Assembly (NCBI GenBank): GCA_035649395.1
Contig: DASRJR010000215.1
Location: 2,318 to 66,317 of the forward strand
DNA: 64,000 nt
Source: Vicinamibacterales bacterium
GTDB taxonomy: Bacteria; Acidobacteriota; Vicinamibacteria; Vicinamibacterales; UBA2999
Reading direction: 5' to 3'
Made by a program: the position numbers and the translations under genes
Notes under the pieces: generated by a model
Told to the model about the DNA's origin: nothing
What the model saw: only the letters and a program-made list of their open reading frames with translations
Database searches by the model: none
Shown: positions 40,915 to 63,073 of the stretch, piece after piece
How positions within the stretch are numbered: the first letter of the stretch is position 1
How the letters are laid out: every line of letters starts with the position of its first letter

Positions 40915-43809
40915 TTGATGATGAAGATCCTTTTCCGACTGTTACTTGCGTCGGTACTCGCGGGGGCGGCTCCAGCCGTGGCGATGGCGCAGGCAGCGCC
41001 GGCGCCGGCGCCCCAGAATCCGGCCAATCAACCGCAAGCCGCAGAACCGGTCGCCATCGACAAGACGGCGTGCGGCACCGAAGTCGGAGCCCCCAGGGCC
41101 CTCCCGCCGGCAGGCTCTCCGCCCTTCGTCTGGATTTGGGAGCCCTGTTTCGCCAGCCAGGGCGGCACGCCAACGATCGAGAGCGACACGTATCTCTACT
41201 GGACCAAGATTAAGGATCTCGTCAGCAAGCCGTCCGAAGGCATCTTCGTCAGCTACGACGACAAGGTCGAGGACACGATGCGGGCGGATTTCAAGTCGCT
41301 GTGGGCGACCAACTTCCTCGACGACCTCAAGATTGAAAAGACCGAGCACACGTTCCCGAACGGGACCGTCGGCGTGATGATCGTCTACCACATGGAGGAG
41401 CGCGAGCGGGTCAAGATCGTCGACTACCGCGATAGCAAAGGCGAGTCGATCAGCATCATCAAGCGCACCGACATCGATCAGAAGCTGCGCGACAAGAACA
41501 TCGAGATGCGTCTCGACTCGTTCCTCGACGAGGGCGCCATTCGCCGGGTCAAGACGACGCTGAGAGAGCTGATGGCGGAGAAAGGATTCACCAACGCCGA
41601 GATCGGCCATAAGGTCACGCCGGTTGCCGGCGGTCCCAAGCTGGTGAACGTGACGTTCTCGGTCGGCGAGGGTCCGAAGATCAAGATCCGCAGTGTCGAC
41701 TTCGCCGGGAATCAGGCGATCAGCGATGGCAAGCTCCAGAAAAAAATGAAAGAGAACAAGCCGAAAGGCTTGCTGGGCTTCATCACCGGTGGCGGCACCT
41801 ACAAGGAGGCCGAATTCGAAGAGGACGCGGCGAAGGTCGTCGAGTATTACCAGAACCAGGGTTATCCGCAGGCGCGGGTTGGCAACCCCGAAATCAAGGT
41901 GGTGGAGGACTCGAAGGACGGCAAGTCACGGTGGGTGGAGCTGCGCATTCCGGTGACGGAAGGGCATCGCTACAAGATGGGCCAGCTGTCGTTCGAGGGA
42001 AACAAGCTGGTCCAAAGTCAGGGTCTGCGGACGCTGTATAAGATCGACCCCGACGAGTGGTACAACCGCAAGAAGCTGCAAGACGGCAACAAGAAGGCGC
42101 AGGAAATCTACGGCAGCCGGGGTTACATGGAGTTCACTCCGTTCCCGGTGCTCAAGTTCAGCGACGACCCGAGCAATCCTGAGACGATGCTCGCGGCGCT
42201 GGTGCCGGCCGCCCTGGCGACGGCGACGCCTGGCACCGATGCGCCGCGCGCCACGGCGAAGGCCGAGGCCAGCAAGACGCCGAGCGTCGACGTCATGATG
42301 CAGATCACCGAGGGGCCTCAGTACTTCGTCAACCGCATCACGTTCACCGGCAACACGACGACGCGCGATAACGTGATCCGACGCGAGATGCGCCTGGTCG
42401 AAGGCGGTGTCTTCGACACCGAAGCGCTCAAGTACAGCGTCCGTCGCTTGAATCAGCTCGGTTACTTCAAGGAGCTCAAGGGCAACGACAGCGACATGAA
42501 GGTCGACAAGACGCCGAACAAGGACAACAACGTCGACGTCACGCTCAAGTTCGAGGAGCAGAATCGCAATCAGCTGACGTTCGGCGCCGGCGTGTCACAG
42601 TACGAGGGCTTGTTCGGTCAGCTGTCGTTCCAGACGTCGAACTTCCTCGGACGCGGCGAGAGCCTGACCGTGTCGATGCAGGCGGGCGACCGCGCGCAGA
42701 ACTATCAGCTCGCGTTCACCGAGCCGTTCCTGTTCGACCGCAACATCACCGGCGGCTTCGATGTCTATAAGCGGTCGCTGCAGTTCGTCGGCTACTACAC
42801 GCAGAAATCAACGGGCGGCAACATGGTGGTCGGGTTCCCGGTCGCCGACTTCAGCCGCATGTTCTTCAACTACTCGTACGAGACGATCAAGATCACCGAC
42901 CTGAGCGAAGCGCTGATCGACACCTCATGTCTGCTGCGCCCGACCGGCTGCTCGGTGCTGTCGTCGGTCAGCAACCTGTCGGAGCTGACGCCGACGCAGC
43001 TGGAGGTGCTGCGCCGCAACCCGTTCATCTACGACTCATTGCTGATCGGTCAGGGCGGCTCGCGCACCATCAGCAAGATCACGCCGAGCTTCGTTCACAA
43101 CACCGTCGACAATCCGATCTTCCCGAACACAGGGCGGCGCTTCACGGCCTCGATGGATCTCGCCGTGCTTGGTGGCAACACCCAGTTCTACAAGCCGTCG
43201 GGTGAGGCGATCTTCTTCAAGCGACATCTGCCGCGCACGTCGGTCGGGTTGCGAGCGCAGGTCCAGTACATCGCGCCGCTCGGCAACACCGAGTCGCTGC
43301 CGATCTTCGAGCGACTCTTCCTCGGCGGTGAGTACAGCGTTCGCGGCTACGACATCCGCTCGATCGGTCCGACCGTGCCCGGGTCGGTTGTCGTGCTCGG
43401 CGGCAACAAGAGCCTGCTGTTCAACGCCGAATACCTCATCTCGATCATGAGCCAGGTGCGTATCGTGCTGTTCTACGACGCCGGTCAGGTGCGTGACGTT
43501 GGACAGTCGTTTGGGTGGAAGGAAGATCTGACGGCGCTCGTCAGCCCGCCGCCCCCGGCCATCACCGATCCGTTCGCCGTGTCCTCGCTGGTCGATCCCA
43601 ACGCACCAGGGGTCACCACGCAGGTCATCGGACAGACGAGCGCGTTCAAGACGTCAACCGGTGTCGAGCTGCGGTTCTTCATGCCGGTCCTGAACGTGCC
43701 GTTCCGATTGATCTACGCGTACAACCCGCAGCGCCTCGGCGTGCTCGACAACCGTTATCAGCCGGCGAAGCAGACGACGTTCCGCTTTGCGGTCGGCACC
43801 ACGTTCTGA
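40915..43809 (+). CDS. bamA: Outer-membrane protein assembly factor BamA
   Basis: Signal peptide, POTRA motifs (GNTTTRDNVIRRE, LGYF), NFLGRG, VRGY loop, terminal GTTF. Confidence 0.95.
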   Translation: MMMKILFRLLLASVLAGAAPAVAMAQAAPAPAPQNPANQPQAAEPVAIDKTACGTEVGAPRALPPAGSPPFVWIWEPCFASQGGTPTIESDTYLYWTKIKDLVSKPSEGIFVSYDDKVEDTMRADFKSLWATNFLDDLKIEKTEHTFPNGTVGVMIVYHMEERERVKIVDYRDSKGESISIIKRTDIDQKLRDKNIEMRLDSFLDEGAIRRVKTTLRELMAEKGFTNAEIGHKVTPVAGGPKLVNVTFSVGEGPKIKIRSVDFAGNQAISDGKLQKKMKENKPKGLLGFITGGGTYKEAEFEEDAAKVVEYYQNQGYPQARVGNPEIKVVEDSKDGKSRWVELRIPVTEGHRYKMGQLSFEGNKLVQSQGLRTLYKIDPDEWYNRKKLQDGNKKAQEIYGSRGYMEFTPFPVLKFSDDPSNPETMLAALVPAALATATPGTDAPRATAKAEASKTPSVDVMMQITEGPQYFVNRITFTGNTTTRDNVIRREMRLVEGGVFDTEALKYSVRRLNQLGYFKELKGNDSDMKVDKTPNKDNNVDVTLKFEEQNRNQLTFGAGVSQYEGLFGQLSFQTSNFLGRGESLTVSMQAGDRAQNYQLAFTEPFLFDRNITGGFDVYKRSLQFVGYYTQKSTGGNMVVGFPVADFSRMFFNYSYETIKITDLSEALIDTSCLLRPTGCSVLSSVSNLSELTPTQLEVLRRNPFIYDSLLIGQGGSRTISKITPSFVHNTVDNPIFPNTGRRFTASMDLAVLGGNTQFYKPSGEAIFFKRHLPRTSVGLRAQVQYIAPLGNTESLPIFERLFLGGEYSVRGYDIRSIGPTVPGSVVVLGGNKSLLFNAEYLISIMSQVRIVLFYDAGQVRDVGQSFGWKEDLTALVSPPPPAITDPFAVSSLVDPNAPGVTTQVIGQTSAFKTSTGVELRFFMPVLNVPFRLIYAYNPQRLGVLDNRYQPAKQTTFRFAVGTTF

Positions 43810-43883: not shown

Positions 43884-44300
43884 TCAGAAGTGCGTGAGTT
43901 CGATCGTGAAGACCGTCGGCGCGGTGAGGAAGCCGACGTCGTAGACGCGGGCACAGAACTGTCCGGTCTGCTGGGCGGTGCCGACGACGGAGACGTTCAG
44001 CTTTGCCTGGTCATTCGCGATGATGATCTGACACGAGGCACCGTTCCAGGTGCCGATGCTCAGACCGATCGTGATGGTGTCGTCAGGCGCCAACGCGCTC
44101 AGTCTGGCGGTCACCGTTCCTGCGCGATTCGCGGTGAACGGAAACGTCCTGGCGCCGTTGACCGTCAGCGTCTCGCTGAGGTTCTCGGTCACGCTCACCG
44201 CGGAGGGCGGGGTCGGCGTCTCGACGGGATCACTGCCGCACGCAGCGATCGAAAGGGTGAGAAAGGCAAAAACGGCCCAAGACAGTGTGGATCGCGGCAT
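43884..44300 (-). CDS. Putative lipoprotein (beta-rich)
   Basis: SD GAGGAG, signal peptide with lipobox IAA-C, Pro/Thr tether, internal Cys pair. Confidence 0.75.
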   Translation of the reverse strand: MPRSTLSWAVFAFLTLSIAACGSDPVETPTPPSAVSVTENLSETLTVNGARTFPFTANRAGTVTARLSALAPDDTITIGLSIGTWNGASCQIIIANDQAKLNVSVVGTAQQTGQFCARVYDVGFLTAPTVFTIELTHF

Positions 44301-44408
44301 CAGTCCGGCAGTCTCCTCGCGCAGGCAACGGGCAAGAACCATCTTACTTGGCGTCAGTTGGTCGAGTAAAATCATCGGAGTACGTTCCAGCAGAAAGGAC
44401 CTAGTGGA

Positions 44409-45113
44409 ATGAGAGTGTTTGCCATCGCTCTGGCGTTCGGCCTGACGGCCGTCGGCGCGTCGTATGCACAGGCGCCCGCGCCGGCCCCGGGAACGCAGAA
44501 GCCAGCGGCACCCACACCCGCGCCGGCCACACAGAAGCCGGCGGCACCAGCGCCCGCGCCGGGCACCCAGAAGCCAGCACCGGCCCCTGCGCCCGCGCCT
44601 TTAGCGAAGTTCCAGGACGGTTTCAAGTACGCCTACGTGCGTATGGACGTCATCGCCGCCCAATCGGCCGATGGCAGGGCAGCCGCGGACCGGCTCAAGG
44701 GTGAGCAGGAGAAGCGGCAACGCGACCTGCAGGACAAGAATAAGAACTTGCAGGCGATGCAGCAGAAGCTCGATCAGGGCGGCAGTGTGCTCAGCGACGC
44801 GGCACGCTCGCAGCTGCAGAGCGACATTGAGCGCACGCAGCGAGATCTCCAGCGCGCGAGCGAGGACGCGCAGGAAGAGCTGCAGAAGCTCGCGCAGCAG
44901 GTCGAGGACGACTTCACGCGCAAGGTCCTGCCGATGGTCGACAAGGTCGCCAAAGAAAAGCAGGTGCACTTCGTCTTCAACGCCGGACAGAGCGGTCTCG
45001 TCTGGGCCGACCCGGGGATGGACCTGACGAGCGACGTAATTGCCGCGATGAATTCGGGTGGCGGCGCCAAACCGGCAGCGCCCGCGCCCGCGCCCGCACC
45101 GCCGGCCAAGTAG
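44409..45113 (+). CDS. skp: OmpH/Skp periplasmic chaperone with Pro/Ala-rich extensions
   Basis: Signal peptide, three PAPAPGTQKP-like repeats, long coiled coil, DLTSDVI; lies between bamA and fabZ. Confidence 0.88.
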   Translation: MRVFAIALAFGLTAVGASYAQAPAPAPGTQKPAAPTPAPATQKPAAPAPAPGTQKPAPAPAPAPLAKFQDGFKYAYVRMDVIAAQSADGRAAADRLKGEQEKRQRDLQDKNKNLQAMQQKLDQGGSVLSDAARSQLQSDIERTQRDLQRASEDAQEELQKLAQQVEDDFTRKVLPMVDKVAKEKQVHFVFNAGQSGLVWADPGMDLTSDVIAAMNSGGGAKPAAPAPAPAPPAK

Positions 45114-45193
45114 CGCGATCGGATCATCCAGGCGTCGCGGCGCACGGCCCCGGAGCTGCGGCGCCTGGTCCGATGCACCCCGAACAGGTTGCT

Positions 45194-46450
45194 GTGGCAG
45201 TCGATCTACCGGCGCTTCTCGATCGCGTCTACTACCGTTACCCGTCTTTCCTCATAGACGCTATTGCCGAGCACGAGCCGGGTCACCGGCTCGTGGCCGT
45301 CAAGAACGTCACCATCAACGAAGAGTTCTTCCAGGGCCACTTCCCAGGTTCCCCGCTGATGCCGGCGGTGTTGATGATCGAGGCGCTGACGCAAGTGGCG
45401 GCGGCATTGCTTCTGGAGCGTGTCGACGCGCCGCTCGCGGCGCGGGTGTGGCTCCGCGGCGTCAACAACGCCAAGTTCAGAACTCCCGTCGTGCCGGGCG
45501 ACCGGCTGTATCTCGATGTCACCCTTGGGCGCGTGCGCTCGCGTCTTGCGACGGCCCAGGCCTCGGCGGTCGTCAACGGGCAACTGGCGGCCGAGGCCGA
45601 GCTGTTACTCGGGATTGAGCCTCCCCAGGCCACGATCGACCCCACGGCCCACGTTCACGCGGGTGCGGTCGTGGGCGAGGGCACGACGATTGGCCCACAT
45701 GCGGTCATCGGCCCTGATGTCCGTGTCGGCACGCACTGCCAGATCGGCGCCTCGGTCGTGATCGAAGGGTGGACGGAGATCGGCGACGGAACACAGATCT
45801 ATCCGATGGCCTCGATCGGCCTCGCGCCGCAGGATCTGAAATACCGCGGAGAGCGGACCAAGCTGATCGTCGGCCGCAACAACATCTTCCGCGAGTTCGT
45901 CACGATCAACCGCGGAACGATGGGCGGCGGCGGCGAGACGACGATTGGTGACGACAATCTGTTCATGGCGTACGTGCATGTCGCCCACGACTGCCATATC
46001 GGCAGCCACACCATCTTTGGCCCCCACGCCACGCTCGGTGGGCACGTGCACGTCGAGGACTTCGCCAACGTGAGCGCCGGATCGGCCGTGCATCAGTTCT
46101 GCCGCGTCGGCAAGCACGGGTTCATCGGCGGCTACTCGGTGGTCACGAAGGACGCGTTGCCGTTCGGCCGCACGATCGGCAGCCGGCCCGCGCGCATCTT
46201 CGGCGTCAACACGATCGGGTTGTCGCGCCGCGGGTTCACGCCGGCGACCATCAGCCAGCTGCGCTCGGCGTTTAGGTATCTGCTGCAGTCCAAGCTGAAC
46301 ACGACGCGGGCACTGGTGACGATCGAGCAGGACAAGTCGTTGTCGGCGCCGGAGATTCACTATCTGGTCGACTTCATCCGCCACTCGCAGCGCGGGGTCA
46401 TCCTCCGGCGACCGACACGCCGCGCCGAGGAGCTCGTGGCCGACGAGTAG
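45194..46450 (+). CDS. lpxA: Fused FabZ 3-hydroxyacyl-ACP dehydratase and LpxA UDP-GlcNAc acyltransferase (start 45173 or 45194)
   Basis: N-part KNVTINEEFFQGHFP..PLMPAVLMIEA, KFRTPVVPGD; C-part hexapeptide repeats, PQDLKY, HVAHDC, HQF; no internal stop. Confidence 0.93.
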   Translation: MAVDLPALLDRVYYRYPSFLIDAIAEHEPGHRLVAVKNVTINEEFFQGHFPGSPLMPAVLMIEALTQVAAALLLERVDAPLAARVWLRGVNNAKFRTPVVPGDRLYLDVTLGRVRSRLATAQASAVVNGQLAAEAELLLGIEPPQATIDPTAHVHAGAVVGEGTTIGPHAVIGPDVRVGTHCQIGASVVIEGWTEIGDGTQIYPMASIGLAPQDLKYRGERTKLIVGRNNIFREFVTINRGTMGGGGETTIGDDNLFMAYVHVAHDCHIGSHTIFGPHATLGGHVHVEDFANVSAGSAVHQFCRVGKHGFIGGYSVVTKDALPFGRTIGSRPARIFGVNTIGLSRRGFTPATISQLRSAFRYLLQSKLNTTRALVTIEQDKSLSAPEIHYLVDFIRHSQRGVILRRPTRRAEELVADE

Positions 46451-46458
46451 AGGACCGT

Positions 46459-47280
46459 GTGAAGCTCGGCATCATTGCCGGTAACGGCCGCTTTCCGTTT
46501 CTCGTTCTCGAGGCGGCGTGCGCTCAGAAGCACGATGTCACTATCGTCGCGATCAAGGAAGAGACGTTTCCGGAATTGAACGATGCGGCGAAGCGTCAAG
46601 GCGCGGCCATCCACTGGATCTCGCTCGGTCAATTGGGCAGGTGCATCGCTGTCCTCAAAGAGGCCGGTGCGAGCAAGGCGGTGATGGCCGGACAGGTGAA
46701 GCACACGAAGATCTTCGCGGGTGTCGTGCCCGACCGGACGTTTCTCGGCGTGCTCATGAGCCTGACCACCAAGAGCACGGACGGCTTGATCGGTGCGGTG
46801 GCCAGGGTGATGAAGGATCACGGCATCGACTTGATCGATTCGACGACGCTGCTGTCACCGCTGCTGGCGAGGTCTGGCGTGCTCACGCGCCGCGAGCCGA
46901 CGGCGGACGAACAGCGCGACTTCGAGTTCGGCTATCGGATCGCCGACGCAATCGCGGGGCTGGACGTTGGACAGACGATTGCGGTGAAGCACTTGGCCGT
47001 CGTCGCTGTCGAAGCGATGGAAGGCACCGACGAAGTGATCGGGCGCGCCGGGCATCTAGCCGGGCCGGGGGTTCGGCTCATCAAGGTTGCCAAGCCGAAT
47101 CAGGACATGCGCTTCGACGTGCCGGTGATCGGCTTCGCCACGATTCAGGCGATGCGGGTCGCGGGGGTGAGCGCGCTCTCGATCGATGCCGGCAAGACGC
47201 TGGTGCTCGATGGCGACGCCGTGTTTGCCTCGGCCAACGAAGCCGGGATCACGATCGTGGGACGGCCACGCCCCTCATGA
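46459..47280 (+). CDS. lpxI: UDP-2,3-diacylglucosamine diphosphatase LpxI
   Basis: LGIIAGNG.FP, DVGQT, EAMEGTD, KP.QDMRFDVPVIG. Confidence 0.92.
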   Translation: MKLGIIAGNGRFPFLVLEAACAQKHDVTIVAIKEETFPELNDAAKRQGAAIHWISLGQLGRCIAVLKEAGASKAVMAGQVKHTKIFAGVVPDRTFLGVLMSLTTKSTDGLIGAVARVMKDHGIDLIDSTTLLSPLLARSGVLTRREPTADEQRDFEFGYRIADAIAGLDVGQTIAVKHLAVVAVEAMEGTDEVIGRAGHLAGPGVRLIKVAKPNQDMRFDVPVIGFATIQAMRVAGVSALSIDAGKTLVLDGDAVFASANEAGITIVGRPRPS

Positions 47281-48240: not shown

Positions 48241-48291
48241 CGCGTACCGTGGCGTGAGTGCGTTTGTTTGCACCAGTTCGTTAGTTCGAAC

Positions 48292-49191
48292 ATGAACACA
48301 TCGACGACGTTCGACCGTTACATGGAGCGCATCGAGGCCGGCGAGGCGCTGGCGCCCGCCGAAATCCAGGAGCTGGCAACGACGCCTGACATCCTGCCGC
48401 TCGGCATGTTGGCCGATACCTGGCGCCGACGGCGCTCTGGCGCGCGCGCCACCTTTCTGCGTGTTGAAACCGTCCCGATCGATGCGGCGTTCGACGAGCC
48501 GCTGCCGCCGATGGCGCGTGAGATCAGGATTACGGGTTCGCCAGTGGACTTGCCATCGGCCGTCACGAGCGTGTCTCGCGCGAAGACGGCGGCAGGGGAG
48601 CGCACGGTGTCCGCTTTCTCGTGGAGCGACGTCGAACGCCTCGGCGACGGTGAGTCTGGCGGGGTTGCCGGAGTGTTGACGTCGTTGCGTGCCGCCGGCC
48701 TCGATTCGATCGCCGATCTGCCGATGGACCGGATCGCCGATCTCGACGCGGCCGTTCGCGATCTCGTGACGGCGGGGTTCAGTCGTCTGCGTCTGACGAT
48801 CGACAAGCTGGCCGCGGCCGACCGTACGGGGCTGTTCGTCCGCGCCAGCCACCTGCACGAACGCTACGCCTGTATCCAGTTGATCAGCCCACTGCCGATG
48901 ACGCTCGCAACGTTTCGCCCTACCACCGGTTACGAGGACGTGAAGACCGTAGCGATCGCGCGGCTTGCCGCGCCTGAGGTGCCGAGCATCCAAGTCGATT
49001 GGCAGCGATACGGGCCCAAGTTGGCGCAGGTCGCGCTGACGTTTGGCGCCGACGACATCGACGGGATTTCCGCCTCGGAGGACGCCCCCGCGGGGAGGCG
49101 CCGAGCGCCGCTCGAGGAGATTCGTCGCAACATCGAGGCCGCCGGCTACACCCCGGTCGAGCGTGACGGCCGGTTCGCCCCACTCGCCTGA
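48292..49191 (+). CDS. MqnE/CofH-like protein lacking the radical-SAM CxxxCxxC motif
   Basis: Aligns by eye with the MqnC in this window (AAGLDSI; TTGYEDVKTVAIARL; AQVALTFGADDIDG; NIEAAGYTPVERD) but contains only one Cys. Confidence 0.8.
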   Translation: MNTSTTFDRYMERIEAGEALAPAEIQELATTPDILPLGMLADTWRRRRSGARATFLRVETVPIDAAFDEPLPPMAREIRITGSPVDLPSAVTSVSRAKTAAGERTVSAFSWSDVERLGDGESGGVAGVLTSLRAAGLDSIADLPMDRIADLDAAVRDLVTAGFSRLRLTIDKLAAADRTGLFVRASHLHERYACIQLISPLPMTLATFRPTTGYEDVKTVAIARLAAPEVPSIQVDWQRYGPKLAQVALTFGADDIDGISASEDAPAGRRRAPLEEIRRNIEAAGYTPVERDGRFAPLA

Positions 49192-50006
49192 TGCCGGCTT
49201 CGGTCGAACACACGCGGCGGCCGCTGCGCATTGGTGCGGTCGGCTATCTGAACGCACGACCGTTGACGTGGGCACTCGATCGCGAGCCGTCACGCTGGCG
49301 AGTTCGCTACGACGTGCCATCGGTGTGTGCCTCGCTGCTGCACGCCGATGAGGTCGACCTGGGTCTCGTACCGTCCGTGGAGTACCTGCAGTCACCGGAC
49401 TATCGGATGATTCCGGGTGTCGGCGTCGGCTCGCGCGGGCCGATCGCTTCAGTCGCGCTCTATACGACTCGGCCGGTTGCCGACGTCAGATCGATTGCGC
49501 TCGACACGAGCTCGCGAACATCCGTGGCACTCATCCAGGTGCTATGCCACCACCACTTTCGGATTCGCCCGGAATTCGTCTCACACCGGCCCGACCTTGC
49601 CGCGATGGTGCGGGCCGCCGACGCGGCGCTGCTGATCGGCGATCCTGCGTTCGATGCCGAGCACGAGGCGCTCGGACTGCAGAAGGTCGATTTGGGCGAG
49701 GAATGGACTCGGCTGAGCGGTCTGCCGTTCATCTATGCGGCGTGGACCGGGCGGACCGGTGTTGCAGATGCCGCGGATGTCAGCGCGTTGCAGGAGGCGC
49801 AGGCCGAAGGTGTCCGGGCGTCCGAGGCGATCGCCGCCGAATACGGGCGCGGCGATGCGAGGCGCACGGCCAGAGCCGCAGCGTACCTAAGGGATAATGT
49901 GAAATACGGTATCGGAGCGGATGAAGCCCGAGGACTGCAGTTGTTCCTGGACTACGCCGCGGATCTCGGCTTGGCTCCGGCACGCCGACGGCTGGAATTC
50001 TTCTGA
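49191..50006 (+). CDS. mqnA: Chorismate dehydratase MqnA (futalosine pathway)
   Basis: IGAVGYLNARPL, SSRTSV, LLIGD.A, DLGEEW, LPFIYAAW. Confidence 0.9.
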   Translation: MPASVEHTRRPLRIGAVGYLNARPLTWALDREPSRWRVRYDVPSVCASLLHADEVDLGLVPSVEYLQSPDYRMIPGVGVGSRGPIASVALYTTRPVADVRSIALDTSSRTSVALIQVLCHHHFRIRPEFVSHRPDLAAMVRAADAALLIGDPAFDAEHEALGLQKVDLGEEWTRLSGLPFIYAAWTGRTGVADAADVSALQEAQAEGVRASEAIAAEYGRGDARRTARAAAYLRDNVKYGIGADEARGLQLFLDYAADLGLAPARRRLEFF

Positions 50007-50009
50007 CAT

Positions 50010-50093
50010 ATAGTTTCCGGCTTTAGCCAGACCTGAAGCTGTAGCGTCCGGCTTCCTGACCGCCGTAGCCGTGGCGGAGGCGGTGAGCCGGAC
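50010..50093 (+). repeat. Degenerate REP plus a REP carrying a nested palindrome in its loop
   Basis: ATAGTTTCCGGCTTTAGCCAGAC, then GTAGCGTCCGGCTT-[CCTGACCGCCGTAGCCGTGGCGGAGGCGGT]-GAGCCGGAC. Confidence 0.7.
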
Positions 50094-50104
50094 TTGAGCG
50101 AACG

Positions 50105-51307
50105 ATGATCGATACGATTGCCAAGAAGGTGCTTGACGGCGGCCGAGTCGACGCCGGTGAGGCGCTGCACCTCTATCGTCACGCGCCGACACACCTGCTC
50201 GGTCACCTCGCCGACGCCATCCGCGTCCGCAAGCACCCCGAGGGCATCGTCACCTACATCATCGACCGCAACGTCAACTACACGAATATCTGCGTCGCCA
50301 GGTGCAACTTCTGCGCGTTCTATCGCCCGGTCGGCTCCAGCGACGGGTACGTCCTCGGCTTCGACGAGATTTTCCAGAAGATCGACGAGACCATCGCCGT
50401 TGGCGGCAACCAACTGCTGCTGCAGGGTGGCCACAACCCCGACCTGCCGATTCAGTGGTACGAGGACTTGTTCCGCGCGGTGAAGGCGCGCTATCCCGAG
50501 TTCAAGCTGCACGCGCTGTCGCCACCTGAAGTGCTGCACATCGCCCGTTTGAATCGGGTCGCGGTGCCGACGGTCATCGAACGCCTGGTTGCGGCCGGTC
50601 TCGACAGCATCCCGGGAGGCGGCGCGGAGATTCTGGTCGATCGCGTACGCACGCTGTTGAACTGCTACAGCAAGGCGACGTCCGACGAGTGGATCGACGT
50701 GATGCGTGAGGCGCACAACGCCGGACTTCGGACGACGGCGACGATGATGTATGGGACGGTCGAGACCGATGAGGAGCGCATTGAGCACATGATGCGTCTG
50801 CGCGATCTCCAGGACGAGACCGCTGGCTTCACCGCGTTCATCACCTGGAGCTACCAGCCGGAGCACACCGAGCACGGCGGCTACGAAGCGACCGGCATCG
50901 ACTACCTTCGCACCCTGGCGCTGTCGCGGATCGTCCTCGACAACTTCGACAACGTGCAAGCGTCGTGGGTCACGCAGGGCGGAAAGGTCGGGCAGCTCAG
51001 TCTCGCCTACGGCGCCAACGACATGGGCAGCGTGATGATCGAAGAGAACGTCGTGCGCGCGGCCGGCGCCAGTTACTGCATGGACGAGCTCGAGATCGTC
51101 GTCAACATCGAGGACGCCGGCTTCACGCCCAAGCGGCGCAACATGCATTACGAGATCCTCGGAGATCCGATCTTCCGCGACCGCGAGGTCCCGCGCATGC
51201 TGTCGCTCGCGACCGCGCGCGCCGACGGTGACACGTCGGTCCCGGAGGAGCTGCGCAACTACCAGGCTCGCAGCCGGGCGGGCAAGACGCTTCGGCTCGC
51301 AGAATAG
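50105..51307 (+). CDS. mqnC: Cyclic dehypoxanthine futalosine synthase MqnC
   Basis: YIIDRNVNYTNICVARCNFCAF, PGGGAEIL, QASWVTQG, GANDMGSVMIEENVV. Confidence 0.93.
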   Translation: MIDTIAKKVLDGGRVDAGEALHLYRHAPTHLLGHLADAIRVRKHPEGIVTYIIDRNVNYTNICVARCNFCAFYRPVGSSDGYVLGFDEIFQKIDETIAVGGNQLLLQGGHNPDLPIQWYEDLFRAVKARYPEFKLHALSPPEVLHIARLNRVAVPTVIERLVAAGLDSIPGGGAEILVDRVRTLLNCYSKATSDEWIDVMREAHNAGLRTTATMMYGTVETDEERIEHMMRLRDLQDETAGFTAFITWSYQPEHTEHGGYEATGIDYLRTLALSRIVLDNFDNVQASWVTQGGKVGQLSLAYGANDMGSVMIEENVVRAAGASYCMDELEIVVNIEDAGFTPKRRNMHYEILGDPIFRDREVPRMLSLATARADGDTSVPEELRNYQARSRAGKTLRLAE

Positions 51308-51325
51308 CAACACCGAGATGAGCCG

Positions 51326-52597
51326 ATGTCGGACGCGCCCCCGCTGACAGTCAAGGCGCAGTGGGTCGTACCGATTGCACGAGCGCCGATCCGTAACGGC
51401 TTTGTCACCATCGGCGGGAACGACCGCATTCAGTCTGTTGATTCGAGCATCCCCGAACCTGGCGGGGTAGTCGATCTCGGCCGGGTCGTGCTGTTGCCGG
51501 CTCTCGTCAACGCGCACACGCATCTGGAGCTGTCGTATCTGCGCGGGAGTGTGCCGCCCAGCGGGAGCTTCAACGAGTGGGTGTCTGATTTGATGTCGCG
51601 GCGTCGCGCCTGGCCCGACCCGGCGGCACCAGCGATTCTCGAAGCGGCTCGCCAGGCGATCGACGAAGCACACCGCTCCGGAACCGGTGTCATCGGCGAC
51701 ATCAGCAACACGCTGGTCACCGTCGACCTGCTCAGAGACGCGAGAATGGCGGCGCACGTCTTCTACGAGCAGCTCGGGTTCAACATCCCGGATGCCGCCG
51801 CCAAAGTCGCCGGGGCCAGGGACGCGATCGCGATGACAGTCACTGGCGACGACCGGATTCGCCTCAGCCTTGCGCCCCACGCACCGTACTCAGTCTCGCC
51901 GGAGCTGTTTCACGCGATTCGAGCCGACGTCGACGCGGCTCCGCATCCCCTCACGACCGTGCATCTGGGTGAATCACCGCAGGAGATCCAACTGTTGCGA
52001 GATGGCACGGGAGCCACGCGCGTCATGCTCGAGCGGCTCGGCGTGTGGACGGATGAGTGGAAGCCGCCTGGCGTCTCGCCGGTCACGTACCTCGCCGACC
52101 TCGGATTCCTCGATGCGCGCACGCTCGTCGTGCATGGCGTGCAGTTCGACTCGGCTGACCTCGCCAAGCTGCGCACGATCGGCGCGACGCTCGTCTCGTG
52201 CCCGAGGAGCAACGTGTATGTCGGCGTCGGATCGCCGCCACTCCAGTCGTTCTATGACGCGGGTGTGCCGGTGGCGTTCGGCACTGACAGCCTCGCGAGT
52301 GTTGCCGATCTCAACATGTTCAACGAGCTGGCCGAGGCGCGGCGAATTGCGCCTGGGGTACCGGCGCGGCGGCTGCTGGAAAGCGCGACGCTGACGGGCG
52401 CCCGAGCGCTCGGTTTCGCGAGCGATTTCGGCAGTGTGGACGTCGGCAAGCGTGCGGTGTTTTCAGTGGTGAGAATGCCGCGCCGAGCCGTGCGTGATGT
52501 GGAAGAATTTCTTGTGAGTGGCATCGCAGCCGATGCCATCAGGCCGTTCGACCTGTCGGCGCGCATGAATTCGGCCGTCGTGGACAGGCCGCAGTGA
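51326..52597 (+). CDS. Amidohydrolase, probable aminodeoxyfutalosine deaminase
   Basis: NAHTHLE, HAPYS, HLGES, VHGV, GTDS; located inside the mqn cluster. Confidence 0.75.
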   Translation: MSDAPPLTVKAQWVVPIARAPIRNGFVTIGGNDRIQSVDSSIPEPGGVVDLGRVVLLPALVNAHTHLELSYLRGSVPPSGSFNEWVSDLMSRRRAWPDPAAPAILEAARQAIDEAHRSGTGVIGDISNTLVTVDLLRDARMAAHVFYEQLGFNIPDAAAKVAGARDAIAMTVTGDDRIRLSLAPHAPYSVSPELFHAIRADVDAAPHPLTTVHLGESPQEIQLLRDGTGATRVMLERLGVWTDEWKPPGVSPVTYLADLGFLDARTLVVHGVQFDSADLAKLRTIGATLVSCPRSNVYVGVGSPPLQSFYDAGVPVAFGTDSLASVADLNMFNELAEARRIAPGVPARRLLESATLTGARALGFASDFGSVDVGKRAVFSVVRMPRRAVRDVEEFLVSGIAADAIRPFDLSARMNSAVVDRPQ

Positions 52598-53448
52598 TGA
52601 GCACGCTCGCGACATACCTCTCATTCGTTCGTTTCAGCCATTCGGTGTTCGCCTTACCGTTTGCGCTGATCGGCGCGCTGCTGGCGTGGCGTGATCATCC
52701 GTTCTCGTGGACGCAGATCGGCTGGATCGTCGTCTGCATGGTCAGCGCCCGCAGCGCGGCGATGGGTTTCAACCGACTCGTCGACGCCCACGACGATGCC
52801 CTGAATCCACGTACGGCGATGCGCGAACTGCCACGGGGCGCGATGAGCCGCACGGATGCGATCCTGTTCGTCGTCATCGCGTCGACGATCTTCGTGCTGG
52901 CGGCCTCTCGTTTGAGCACGCTGTGCTTGCTGTTGTCGCCCCTGGCGCTCGCGATCGTGTTCTGGTACTCGTTGGCCAAACGCGTGACCGCGTACACGCA
53001 GTTGTTCCTCGGTCTTGCCATGGCGGTGGCGCCGGTCGGAGGCTGGCTGGCGGCCGGCGGCAGAGGGGGACTCGAGCCATGGTTGCTGGGTCTCGGGATC
53101 GGGTTGTGGGTTGGCGGCTTCGACATCCTCTACGCCTGTCAGGACGTCGACTTCGATCGCGGCCATGGCTTGCGCTCGATCCCCACGCGATTCGGCGTCG
53201 CGAGGTCGATCGCACTGTCACGTCTGATGCACGTCGGCGCCGTCGTGACGATGGCCGTGCTGTGGCAGGCCGCGCGCTTGCCGGCACTGTATCTGGCCGG
53301 CGTCGCGTGTGTGGCCGTTCTGCTGTTCTACGAGCAGTCGCTCGTCCGCGCCGACGACTTGTCGCAGGTGAAAAAGGCCTTCGATCTCAACGGGTGGGTC
53401 GGCATTATCTACTTCGCTGTCACGGCGCTCGCACTCTACATCGGCTAG
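52594..53448 (+). CDS. ubiA: UbiA-like prenyltransferase of the futalosine pathway (MqnP-type)
   Basis: FSHSVFALPF, ARSAAMGFNRLVD, NPRT..RELP, FDILYACQD. Confidence 0.9.
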   Translation: MMSTLATYLSFVRFSHSVFALPFALIGALLAWRDHPFSWTQIGWIVVCMVSARSAAMGFNRLVDAHDDALNPRTAMRELPRGAMSRTDAILFVVIASTIFVLAASRLSTLCLLLSPLALAIVFWYSLAKRVTAYTQLFLGLAMAVAPVGGWLAAGGRGGLEPWLLGLGIGLWVGGFDILYACQDVDFDRGHGLRSIPTRFGVARSIALSRLMHVGAVVTMAVLWQAARLPALYLAGVACVAVLLFYEQSLVRADDLSQVKKAFDLNGWVGIIYFAVTALALYIG

Positions 53449-53581
53449 CCACGGAGAACGTAGCCACGGAGGACACTAAGATCACGAAGCTTTGGCCACT
53501 AAGATCACGGAGAACACGAAACGAGATCCTTAGTGCTCTTAGTGTCCTCAGTGGCAATAATCTCCGTGTCCTCCGTGGCTA
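53446..53581. repeat. Inverted arrays of a 9-bp unit (CACGGAGRA/CACTAAGAT)
   Basis: GCCACGGAGGACACTAAGATCACGAAG (53463-53489) matches the reverse complement of 53529-53555 at 24/27; outer TAGCCACGGAG/CTCCGTGGCTA arms. Confidence 0.8.
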
Positions 53582-54306
53582 ACCTCACACCGGACAAGAC
53601 GCCCGAGCGCATCGCGGGGATGTTCGACGCGATCGCCCCGCGCTACGACCTGCTGAATCATCTGCTGAGCGCCGGCATCGATCGGCGGTGGCGGCGAGAG
53701 GCGATTGCCTCGCTGCAGCTCTCCGGACGCGAAACGCTGATCGACGTCTGCACCGGGACGGCCGATGTCGCCCTCGAGGCGCGTGGGGCGCGTCGCATCC
53801 TGGGCATCGATTTCGCAGGAGAGATGCTGCGGCTGGGACTCGATAAGATCCGTGCGGCGCACCAGGCCCGACGCATCACGCTCGTCCGCGGCGATGCGAC
53901 CGCGATTCCCGCGCCCGACGCCTGCGCCGAGGCCGCCACGGTCGCCTTCGGCATACGCAATGTAGAGCATCCCGATCGCGCCTGCGTCGAGTTGGCGCGC
54001 GTGCTTCGCCCTGGCGGGCGGCTGGCGATTCTGGAGTTTGGCGTGCCGAGGATTCCGGGGATTAGCGCTGTCTACCTCTGGTACTTCAGGAACATCTTGC
54101 CCCGAATTGGCCGACTCATTTCGGGGCACATGGGCGCCTACTCGTATCTGCCGGCGTCGGTGACCACGTTTCCCCCTGCAGCTGAGTTTGTGACAATACT
54201 GCGTCAATCCGGGTTTCACGACGTTCGCGCCGTCCCGCTGACGTTCGGCGTCGTCTATCTCTATACGGCAGTCAGGAATCAGGAGGCGGGAATCGGGAAT
54301 CAGTAG
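53575..54306 (+). CDS. ubiE: Demethylmenaquinone methyltransferase MenG/UbiE (start uncertain)
   Basis: MFDAIAPRYDLLNHLLS.G.D..WR, DVCTGT, AFGIRNV, RVLRPGG, AYSYLP.S. Confidence 0.92.
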   Translation: MANLTPDKTPERIAGMFDAIAPRYDLLNHLLSAGIDRRWRREAIASLQLSGRETLIDVCTGTADVALEARGARRILGIDFAGEMLRLGLDKIRAAHQARRITLVRGDATAIPAPDACAEAATVAFGIRNVEHPDRACVELARVLRPGGRLAILEFGVPRIPGISAVYLWYFRNILPRIGRLISGHMGAYSYLPASVTTFPPAAEFVTILRQSGFHDVRAVPLTFGVVYLYTAVRNQEAGIGNQ

Positions 54307-61831: not shown

Positions 61832-63073
61832 TTGAGCAGACGCGTCGTCATCACCGGGATCGGACTGGTGTCGTCGCTCGGCATCGGCACCGCCGCGACC
61901 TGGCGGGGGCTGCTGGCGGGCACGCCGGGCGTCACCCGTGTCACGAGATTCGATGTGACCGGATTCGCCGCCCAGATCGCCGCCGAGGTCAAGGGGTTCG
62001 ATCCGCTGCAGTTCATCGAGAAGAAAGACGTCAAGAAGATGGACGTCTTCATCCAGTACGCCGTCGCGGCGTCGCAGTTCGCGATGGACGACTCGGGGCT
62101 GCGCATCACGAAAGAGAACGCGCCCGACGTCGGCGTGTTCATCGGGTCGGGCATCGGCGGGTTCCAGACGATCGAGCGCGAGCACAGCGCGCTGCTCGAC
62201 GGCGGCCCGCGCCGCATTTCACCCTTCTTCATTCCGTCGGCGATCATCAACCTGGCCTCAGGCCAGGTCTCGATTCGATTCGGCGCCAAGGGACCCAACA
62301 TCGCGACGTGCACCGCGTGCTCGGCATCGGCGCACGCCGTCGGCGAGTCGTTCGAGATCATCAAACGCGGCGACGCCGAGGCGATGATCGCGGGCGGGTC
62401 CGAGGCGGCGATCACGCCGATGAGCCTGGGCGGTTTCGGGGCGTTGCGCGCGCTCTCGACGCGCAACGACGAGCCGAGCCGCGCCAGCCGGCCGTTCGAC
62501 ACCGATCGCGACGGGTTCATCATCGGCGAAGGCGCTGGCGTCCTGATCCTGGAGGAGCTGGAATACGCGAAGCGGCGCGGCGCCAAGATCTACGCGGAGG
62601 TGGTCGGCTACGGGCTGTCGGGCGATGCGTATCACATCACGGCGCCATCGGAAGACGGCGACGGGGCGATTCGCGTCATGCGGATGGCATTGAAGAAGGC
62701 CGGCGTCGCCCCGAGCGAAGTCGACTACATCAACGCCCACGGCACCTCGACTCCGTACAACGACCGGCTCGAGACGATCGCCATCAAGACCTGCTTCGGC
62801 GAGCACGCGCGCGCGGTCGCGATCTCCTCGACGAAGTCGATGACCGGCCACCTACTCGGCGGCGCCGGTGGCCTCGAGGCGGGCATTTCCGCGCTGGCGG
62901 TGCACGATCAGATCGCGCCCCCGACAATCAACCTCGAGCACCCCGATCCCGAGTGCGACCTCGACTACGTGCCGTGCAAGAGCCGCCCGATGCCGATCCG
63001 CTACGCGCTCTCGAACTCCTTCGGCTTCGGCGGCACCAACGCGGCGTTGCTGTTCAAGAAGTACGAAGGCTGA
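61832..63073 (+). CDS. fabF: 3-oxoacyl-ACP synthase II
   Basis: TTG 61832; TACSAS, NAHGTST, KSMTGHLLG, NSFGFGG. Confidence 0.97.
   Translation: MSRRVVITGIGLVSSLGIGTAATWRGLLAGTPGVTRVTRFDVTGFAAQIAAEVKGFDPLQFIEKKDVKKMDVFIQYAVAASQFAMDDSGLRITKENAPDVGVFIGSGIGGFQTIEREHSALLDGGPRRISPFFIPSAIINLASGQVSIRFGAKGPNIATCTACSASAHAVGESFEIIKRGDAEAMIAGGSEAAITPMSLGGFGALRALSTRNDEPSRASRPFDTDRDGFIIGEGAGVLILEELEYAKRRGAKIYAEVVGYGLSGDAYHITAPSEDGDGAIRVMRMALKKAGVAPSEVDYINAHGTSTPYNDRLETIAIKTCFGEHARAVAISSTKSMTGHLLGGAGGLEAGISALAVHDQIAPPTINLEHPDPECDLDYVPCKSRPMPIRYALSNSFGFGGTNAALLFKKYEG

Follow-up and report, generated by a model that had tools for sequence, protein, structure and literature searches.

A FabZ-LpxA fusion and a His-less FabZ partner: a predicted one-site dehydratase in Vicinamibacterales

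Described FabZ assemblies and fusions

In textbook accounts of bacterial fatty-acid synthesis, the dehydratase FabZ is a homohexamer. In the H. pylori enzyme, the active site is built in trans from His58 of one subunit and Glu72 of the other; the Glu subunit supplies Ile20-His23, Gly79, Phe83, Ile98-Thr103 and the ACP patch, while Phe59, Lys62, Ile64, Arg110 and Pro112 come from the His subunit (PMC2692856, PMC5143422). The catalytic His acts as the base (PMC10139942), and the canonical homohexamer already binds one ACP per dimer, three per hexamer (PMC2692856, PMC5143422).

Two related dehydratases are built from unlike chains. ApeI:ApeP is a heterodimeric single-site dehydratase (PMC8041823, PMC8253772) and the closest working analogue of the arrangement proposed below; one Acinetobacter strain carries ApeI as a fusion with the enzyme ApeH (PMC8041823). 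Mycobacterial HadAB, of FAS-II, is an obligate single-hot-dog hetero-oligomer with one active site, in which HadB gives both catalytic residues (His-Asp), and it is very different in sequence from FabA/FabZ (PMC4491049). In LpxC-FabZ (NF009667; Bacteroidetes, Chlorobi, Verrucomicrobia), FabZ is joined to an enzyme of lipid A synthesis encoded in the same cluster, and this is the only fusion named in the available text of PMC3087551 and PMC516016. Within the literature searched, whose coverage is limited, no description of a FabZ-LpxA fusion or of a split housekeeping FabZ was found.

The locus described here lies in a window of 64,000 nucleotides (the whole stretch of DNA that was analyzed) from a Vicinamibacterales bacterium. 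It takes the same bamA-skp-fabZ-lpxA-lpxI position as a canonical fabZ with a separate, adjacent lpxA, and it shares the fold of the canonical homohexamer (H. pylori 2GLL/4ZJB, E. coli 6N3P; Foldseek TM to the target ~0.85, 30-44% identity). In contrast to canonical FabZ, it is fused to LpxA, and the halves of the trans site are conserved on two genes. Compared with LpxC-FabZ, fusion partner and domain order are different and lpxC is separate; membership of that family was rejected, as NF009667 reached 136.2 against a cut-off of 465, over the FabZ part only, and there is no N-terminal LpxC. Whereas ApeI:ApeP belongs to a secondary-metabolite (aryl-polyene) cluster with linked genes, the present context is bamA-skp-lpx with the partner on another contig, both proteins are FabZ proper, apparently of a housekeeping dehydratase, and the pairing is predicted. 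Assignment to ApeI/ApeP was likewise rejected (PF22818, 21.5 bits, cut-off 28.5), and PF22817 (ApeP-like) matched neither here nor in the control genomes. A HadAB-type arrangement was discarded too: the FabZ-fold site spans two chains, His and Glu are predicted to come from different chains, and in the model presented below Glu68 of the partner touches Pro57/Val59 of the fused domain.

The fusion gene, its distribution and its LpxA half

The features of the fusion and its immediate neighbourhood are as follows.

40915..43809, + strand: bamA, upstream in the fusion cluster (HMM match)
44409..45113, + strand: skp/ompH, directly upstream of the fusion (HMM match)
45194..46450, + strand: fabZ-lpxA fusion gene, stop-free frame of 418 aa, with an alternative in-frame ATG start at 45173
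45194..45616, + strand: FabZ "His-half" hot-dog domain, residues 1-141
45338..45340, + strand: codon of the catalytic His49, at the position of H. pylori FabZ His58; His in 66/66 fused copies
45380..45382, + strand: codon of Glu63, at the position of H. pylori Glu72; Glu in 64/66 fused copies
45611..45634, + strand: linker from FabZ to LpxA, 8 residues here
45635..46450, + strand: LpxA domain, left-handed beta-helix and helical C-domain
46459..47280, + strand: lpxI-like gene, directly downstream of the fusion

Gene order in the window is clpC-type ATPase, bamA, skp, fabZ-lpxA fusion and lpxI-like gene, the last scoring over the cut-off for Pfam LpxI_N and LpxI_C and under the NCBIfam cut-off. 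As to the start, GTG 45194 marks the first position in 85 of 120 homologues. Residues 11-138 match FabZ (NF000582, 135.8 bits, cut-off 113; TIGR01750, 135.4 bits, under the cut-off of 155.15) and residues 146-404 match LpxA (NF003657, 328.4, cut-off 226; TIGR01852, 300.8, cut-off 231). A single-chain AlphaFold model (pTM 0.48) contains both folds and gives no domain orientation. In the source annotation, the fusion is named only LpxA and the partner gene described below a plain dehydratase.

An earlier note made from the DNA alone had proposed a FabZ-LpxA fusion, distinct from the familiar LpxC-FabZ, which couples two enzymes acting at the 3-hydroxyacyl-ACP branch point (PMC3087551, PMC13477621). 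The fusion proved genuine. All named motifs are present in the translation, namely YYRYPS (13-18), GHFP (His49), MPAV, IEA (Glu63), HVAHDC and FIGG, and the junction, LLLGIEPPQATIDP, lies in a stop-free frame. The note had suggested checking reads at this place: contigs from X3, X9 and X14, further DNA runs under three study codes, span 45600-45640 with 0 mismatches or indels and no stop or frameshift, two runs flagged as possible source having been excluded. RNA run X16 covers only part of the fusion gene, outside the junction, and does not bear on expression. In each of the best 120 homologous protein clusters, both domains are present and the match covers 99-100% of the query, and their organism-bearing source names are Vicinamibacterales. 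The linker measures 7-8 residues in 55/66 fused copies, with a maximum of 36 and an unconserved sequence. Frameshifts in the fusion gene of 3/120 genomes of the order (G073, G108, G118) might hint at an assembly or gene-calling artefact, but they lie at differing places inside the domains and off the junction; the bridging contigs and the 120/120 full-length clusters rule out an artefact at the junction, and the chance of this explanation is practically nil.

We compared 120 other Vicinamibacterales genomes, each at least 90% complete (the host genome is 85% complete). In 114/120, the FabZ match lies inside an open frame of at least 413 aa, frame length serving as a proxy for fusion, and in 66 of those 114 LpxA was read in frame. 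Besides the frameshifted copies, the rest comprise one copy apparently truncated where its contig ends and two fragmented assemblies without an LpxA match. Canonical-strength FabZ (E<=1e-47) was not found among 201 genomes of the order, whereas other classes of the phylum have canonical-scoring FabZ (174-211 bits) in 126/129 genomes, including the unpublished G141. A separate lpxA frame follows fabZ at 33 of 34 outgroup loci, with a spacing of -5 to +111 bases; these 34 copies are the 30 best-scoring plus four picked, a sample that leans canonical. Since lpxA stands directly behind fabZ in these outgroups, the fusion would most simply have arisen by loss of the stop between the two neighbouring genes.

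Full-length FabZ-LpxA fusions of 35-44% identity also occur in other lineages, including Margulisiibacteriota and Armatimonadota by source names. The 17 that were read are scattered over several places of a poorly resolved tree, and about 9/17 keep a canonical FabZ domain. By itself, fusion is a modest and recurring variation. Several of these proteins depart from the canonical pattern: P0270 and P0317 are fusions without the catalytic His, while P0277, P0346 and P0261 keep it and lose the His of Pro-His. P0250 (586 aa, one cluster member) has two tandem FabZ domains before LpxA. In its first FabZ, as in the His-less partner, Pro-His is retained and Pro-Pro replaces Pro-Gly; the second keeps the His and Pro-Gly and has Asp-His and Val-Glu in the tunnel. 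This single sequence possibly holds the same split within one chain. At two further loci (L105, L106, in G203 and G250), FabZ ends a frame of ~504 aa that is followed by a separate lpxA; our guess for the N-terminal part is LpxC.

The fusion encodes an LpxA with every known catalytic residue. Based on an alignment to 1LXA and the residue roles given in PMC6286764, the relevant positions of the fusion are Q213, K216, H262, H265, D266, H284, H300, Q301, G313, N339 and R345; in E. coli numbering, the H125/D126 dyad and Q73, K76, H122, H144, Q161 and N198 are each kept in 65-66/66 copies. The earlier note had taken the Gly at the G173 ruler position as compatible with longer acyl chains. Gly313 does correspond to E. 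coli G173, and this position is Gly in 64/66 fused copies, but at His191, which in E. coli LpxA is the other residue capping chain length (PMC6286764), 66/66 copies have Arg, so acyl length is unreadable from Gly313 alone. Early lipid A genes found elsewhere in the host genome are lpxC (a separate gene, on C363), lpxD and lpxB.

Some further genes of the window may be mentioned. Between bamA and skp, a 163-aa ORF on the opposite strand (43884-44375, -) has no Pfam or NCBIfam match and a lipoprotein-like N-terminal part by eye. Behind the lpx genes, futalosine-type menaquinone genes occupy 48268-54306 (mqnA-like; mqnC, the latter over cut-off), among them a 307-aa ORF at 48268-49191 that matches only the MqnE/CofH C-terminal region and no radical-SAM Pfam domain. 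A fabF over cut-off lies near the window end (~61838-63058, +).

A His-less partner and the complementary erosion of two FabZ genes

A search for a stand-alone fabZ, which the earlier note had recommended, did find a second FabA-family gene on another contig, but it lacks the catalytic His, and no canonical-scoring FabZ was found in the 201 genomes of the order.

G000:C174:89795-90289 (L001:7796-8290), outside the window: His-less FabZ partner, 164 aa, on another contig

The best solved relatives of this protein are FabZ; it has ILPHRYPF and the Glu, and no GHFP. Of the 120 genomes compared, 119 have an orthologue of 60-77% identity, in one case divided between two contigs; it is present in the 120 listed homologous clusters as well, and its conservation exceeds that of canonical FabZ (mean identity 0.73 vs 0.61). 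At most two FabA-family matches were counted in 75/120 genomes and at least three in 45/120; seven single-contig genomes have exactly two. The third copies, read in five genomes, have diverged, and some of them carry His as well as Glu. The partner's neighbours are signalling-type genes, and no fatty-acid genes recur among them (52 loci; clusters judged by eye). The first tree was too short to distinguish duplication from transfer as the origin of the partner. One genome carries a second, divergent partner copy of 50% identity (L113, G058:C1:538490-538918).

Positions were counted in the fused (66), partner (68) and outgroup (34) domains, with columns set by motif offsets and one frameshifted fused copy dropped. 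On the His side, the catalytic His is found in 66/66 fused, 0/68 partner and 34/34 outgroup domains, the Phe that follows it in 64/66 fused and 0/68 partners, and the helix-capping Gly of Pro-Gly-Val in 61/66 fused, 0/68 partners (Pro in 57) and 34/34 outgroups; the FFxGHFP loop is invariant in the fused copies. The Glu side runs the other way. Both residues of Pro-His are kept in 68/68 partners and 34/34 outgroups, while the fused copies retain the Pro in 9/66 and the His in 13/66. At the Ile98 position, 55/66 fused copies have Arg and 1/66 the outgroup residue; at Met102, the figures are 63/66 and 0/66. At Tyr100, 19/66 fused copies keep the outgroup residue, and 63/68 partners have the gate Tyr or Phe. 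The fused domain thus falls outside canonical FabZ with respect to the Glu-side tunnel, gate and ACP patch. The copy in the window follows the pattern: it keeps His49, Phe50, Pro57/Val59, Phe95-Arg96 and Glu63, and has Tyr13-Tyr14 for Pro-His and Arg84, Trp86 and Arg88 at tunnel and ACP-patch positions. The altered PHRYPF that the earlier note had seen belongs to this wider erosion. The MPAV change, though present here, is local; with Gly at that place in 61/66 fused copies across the class, it was rejected as a family signature.

Some observations run counter to a clean split. Glu63 and Gln67 each persist in 64/66 fused copies, and formally two fused chains would thus suffice for a His/Glu dyad; His and Glu stand together in the fused domain, which the partner (His 0/68) does not offer. 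Pro-His is intact in 3/66 fused copies, and two of six His-side positions, the Ile64 and Pro112 equivalents, are retained more often in the partner. In 29/68 partners, an unconserved His precedes the catalytic position by one column. The position test gave a difference of 0.66 (permutation p 0.011 and 0.006), which is descriptive only, as the columns were placed by motif offsets and set after the pattern was seen, and the rows are kin.

Taken together, we consider it probable that the fused FabZ and the His-less partner form one-site heterodimers, likely within a hexamer that carries one LpxA trimer. The catalytic His and the helix N-cap would come from the fused domain; the His-less FabZ would contribute the Glu together with the gate, the ACP patch and the Pro-His tunnel wall, so that each heterodimer presumably has one live site. 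Three heterodimers are predicted by the model to build an alternating three-fold hexamer; from symmetry, its three fused chains could carry exactly one LpxA trimer, and the fusion would place LpxA and the dehydratase on one acyl-ACP pool.

The earlier note had instead pictured a self-sufficient FabZ homohexamer capped by two LpxA trimers, which fixes or senses the phospholipid/lipid A split, the second gene being unrelated. His49 (66/66) and Glu63 (64/66) are conserved and the NF000582 cut-off is passed, which speaks for such an enzyme, and its geometry could hold for the ~9/17 fusions of other lineages with a canonical FabZ. In the order studied here, however, the Glu-side tunnel and ACP patch have decayed, two hydrophobic positions being occupied by Arg, the His-less copy is co-inherited in 119/120 genomes, the halves show further, mirror-image erosion in family f72 (see below), and a model given both chains alternates them. 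We regard this picture as decidedly unlikely. Should pairing of the halves be obligatory, each hexamer would contain three fused chains and hence one LpxA trimer; dehydratase output would then also hinge on the partner gene at a second locus, and the fusion by itself could not set the phospholipid/lipid A split.

Predicted assembly and the series of families within the class

To model the proposed assembly, three copies of fusion residues 1-184 were folded with three partners, using an alignment of 65 rows each. The result is an alternating hetero-hexamer with a score of 0.92, while the best of three controls scored 0.00. The mark used was reached by 116/157 solved and 2/215 mismatched pairs, counts that are only rough for this job, and the score also passes close cousins, as in 10/12 colicin pairs. 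Runs agree in at least 97% of contacts, and partner pLDDT is at least 90. The contacts between fused and partner chains are nearly identical in all three copies of each and pair helix with helix (57-66 against partner 60-71) and strand with strand (86-95 against partner 90-99); as these interfaces join unlike chains, each dimer in the model is mixed. The contact of Pro57/Val59 with partner Glu68 corresponds to the expected live site. Glu63, in turn, faces a site that would have no His; it touches partner Thr64/Pro62, and Thr replaces the usual Val in 65/68 partners; in the model, this contact may explain why the fused Glu63 is retained. The pass may reflect likeness to solved FabZ hexamers, the hetero-assembly being the only one folded.

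A sample of 61 genomes of the class revealed three states. The fused His-half with a partner is found in Vicinamibacterales and in families f18, f73 and f75. In families f74 and f76, a near-canonical fabZ, a separate lpxA and a His-less copy occur together (5/5 read). In family f72, LpxA was found in 0/27 genomes, LpxC in none of five and LpxB in none of three single-contig genomes, while FabF is present in 4/4. The notion that the whole class is fused was therefore rejected, f72, f74 and f76 being unfused. The bamA-skp position served to mark the orthologous locus in these relatives.

Family f72 has a FabZ match without the N-terminal part of the model in 27/27 genomes and a second, full-start match in 26/27; one genome carries a canonical FabZ copy as well. 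The former, the His-half, lies behind bamA-skp in the 7 genomes checked and keeps GHFP, PGV, Glu and RFR, whereas helix 1 with Pro-His is gone from the copies read, as is the conserved Gln. The Glu-half copies read keep PH and EAMAQ, with the GHFP loop deleted.

On the FabZ tree, the His-less copies form one group (100/100), and f72 joins f74/f76 in both gene lineages (98/98, 94/98), in agreement with the RpoB tree (SH 97, long branch). Fused FabZ rows group at 93/87, unstarred. With a class root support of 5, the RpoB tree leaves one versus two fusion events undecided. A His-less copy occurs in every family of the class that was read. Based on these data, it probably goes back to the class ancestor, whereas the operon copy probably parted with its Glu side on two occasions, once in the fused lineages and once in the unfused, LpxA-less family. 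As the His-half is kept in f72 without LpxA, its job is independent of LpxA; as f72 keeps separate halves and f74/f76 are intermediate, the split would be independent of the fusion and is likely older.

These families bear on two further explanations. One holds that the His-less copy is an optional accessory, fused homodimers working by themselves and the partner altering rate or chain preference. Its presence beside a near-canonical FabZ in f74/f76 (5/5) makes a role of its own possible, and a separate locus with signalling-type neighbours and the conserved fused Glu suit an accessory as well. Yet near-universal presence and an identity above that of canonical FabZ befit an essential subunit, and f72 His-halves without helix 1 and the conserved Gln would hardly work alone; we think this explanation unlikely. 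The other makes the fused hot-dog an acyl-ACP docking or sensing module for LpxA, an unrelated enzyme performing the dehydration. His-less FabZ-LpxA fusions do exist elsewhere (P0270, P0317), and our search covered the FabA family, outside which MaoC-type and other dehydratases lie. Against a mere module stand the invariant catalytic His and FFxGHFP loop and the retention of the His-half in 27/27 LpxA-less f72 genomes, which leave it highly improbable.

The one-site heterodimer, as the reading we prefer, can be extended to an obligate two-gene FabZ of core elongation in the Vicinamibacteria, (FabZ-LpxA)3(FabZ')3, with one LpxA trimer on one face. In this fuller form, LpxA and His-half would be fixed at 1:1 and the supply of Glu-half from its separate locus would thus act as the phospholipid/lipid A dial, and the living families would preserve the steps from homomer to heteromer, one of them taken twice. 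We put this forward tentatively and hold the combination as a whole to be rather doubtful. Competition between FabZ and LpxA at the branch point is established for E. coli (PMC3087551, PMC13477621), but suppression between fabZ and lpxA/lpxC was not seen in P. aeruginosa (PMC12152623), so a regulatory role of the fusion is no more than possible.

If true, an abundant soil class has made a one-site heteromer of an enzyme known as a homohexameric dehydratase, and current annotation misses it. It would offer a FabZ with built-in, permanent asymmetry on which the "seesaw" half-of-sites mechanism could be tested, as well as a natural series for the origin of an obligate heteromer, from a complete FabZ with a His-less copy to the split, fused or unfused. 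It would also provide a physical link at the phospholipid/lipid A branch, which E. coli makes only through scaffolding.

In G253, a genome of family f72, the His-half fabZ is not followed by the lpxA-lpxI stretch. With bamA and skp kept (e.g. G251, G253, G255, G263, G271; L300-L313) but LpxA found in 0/27, LpxC in 0/5 and LpxB in 0/3 genomes, the family is a candidate for an LPS-free acidobacterial lineage.
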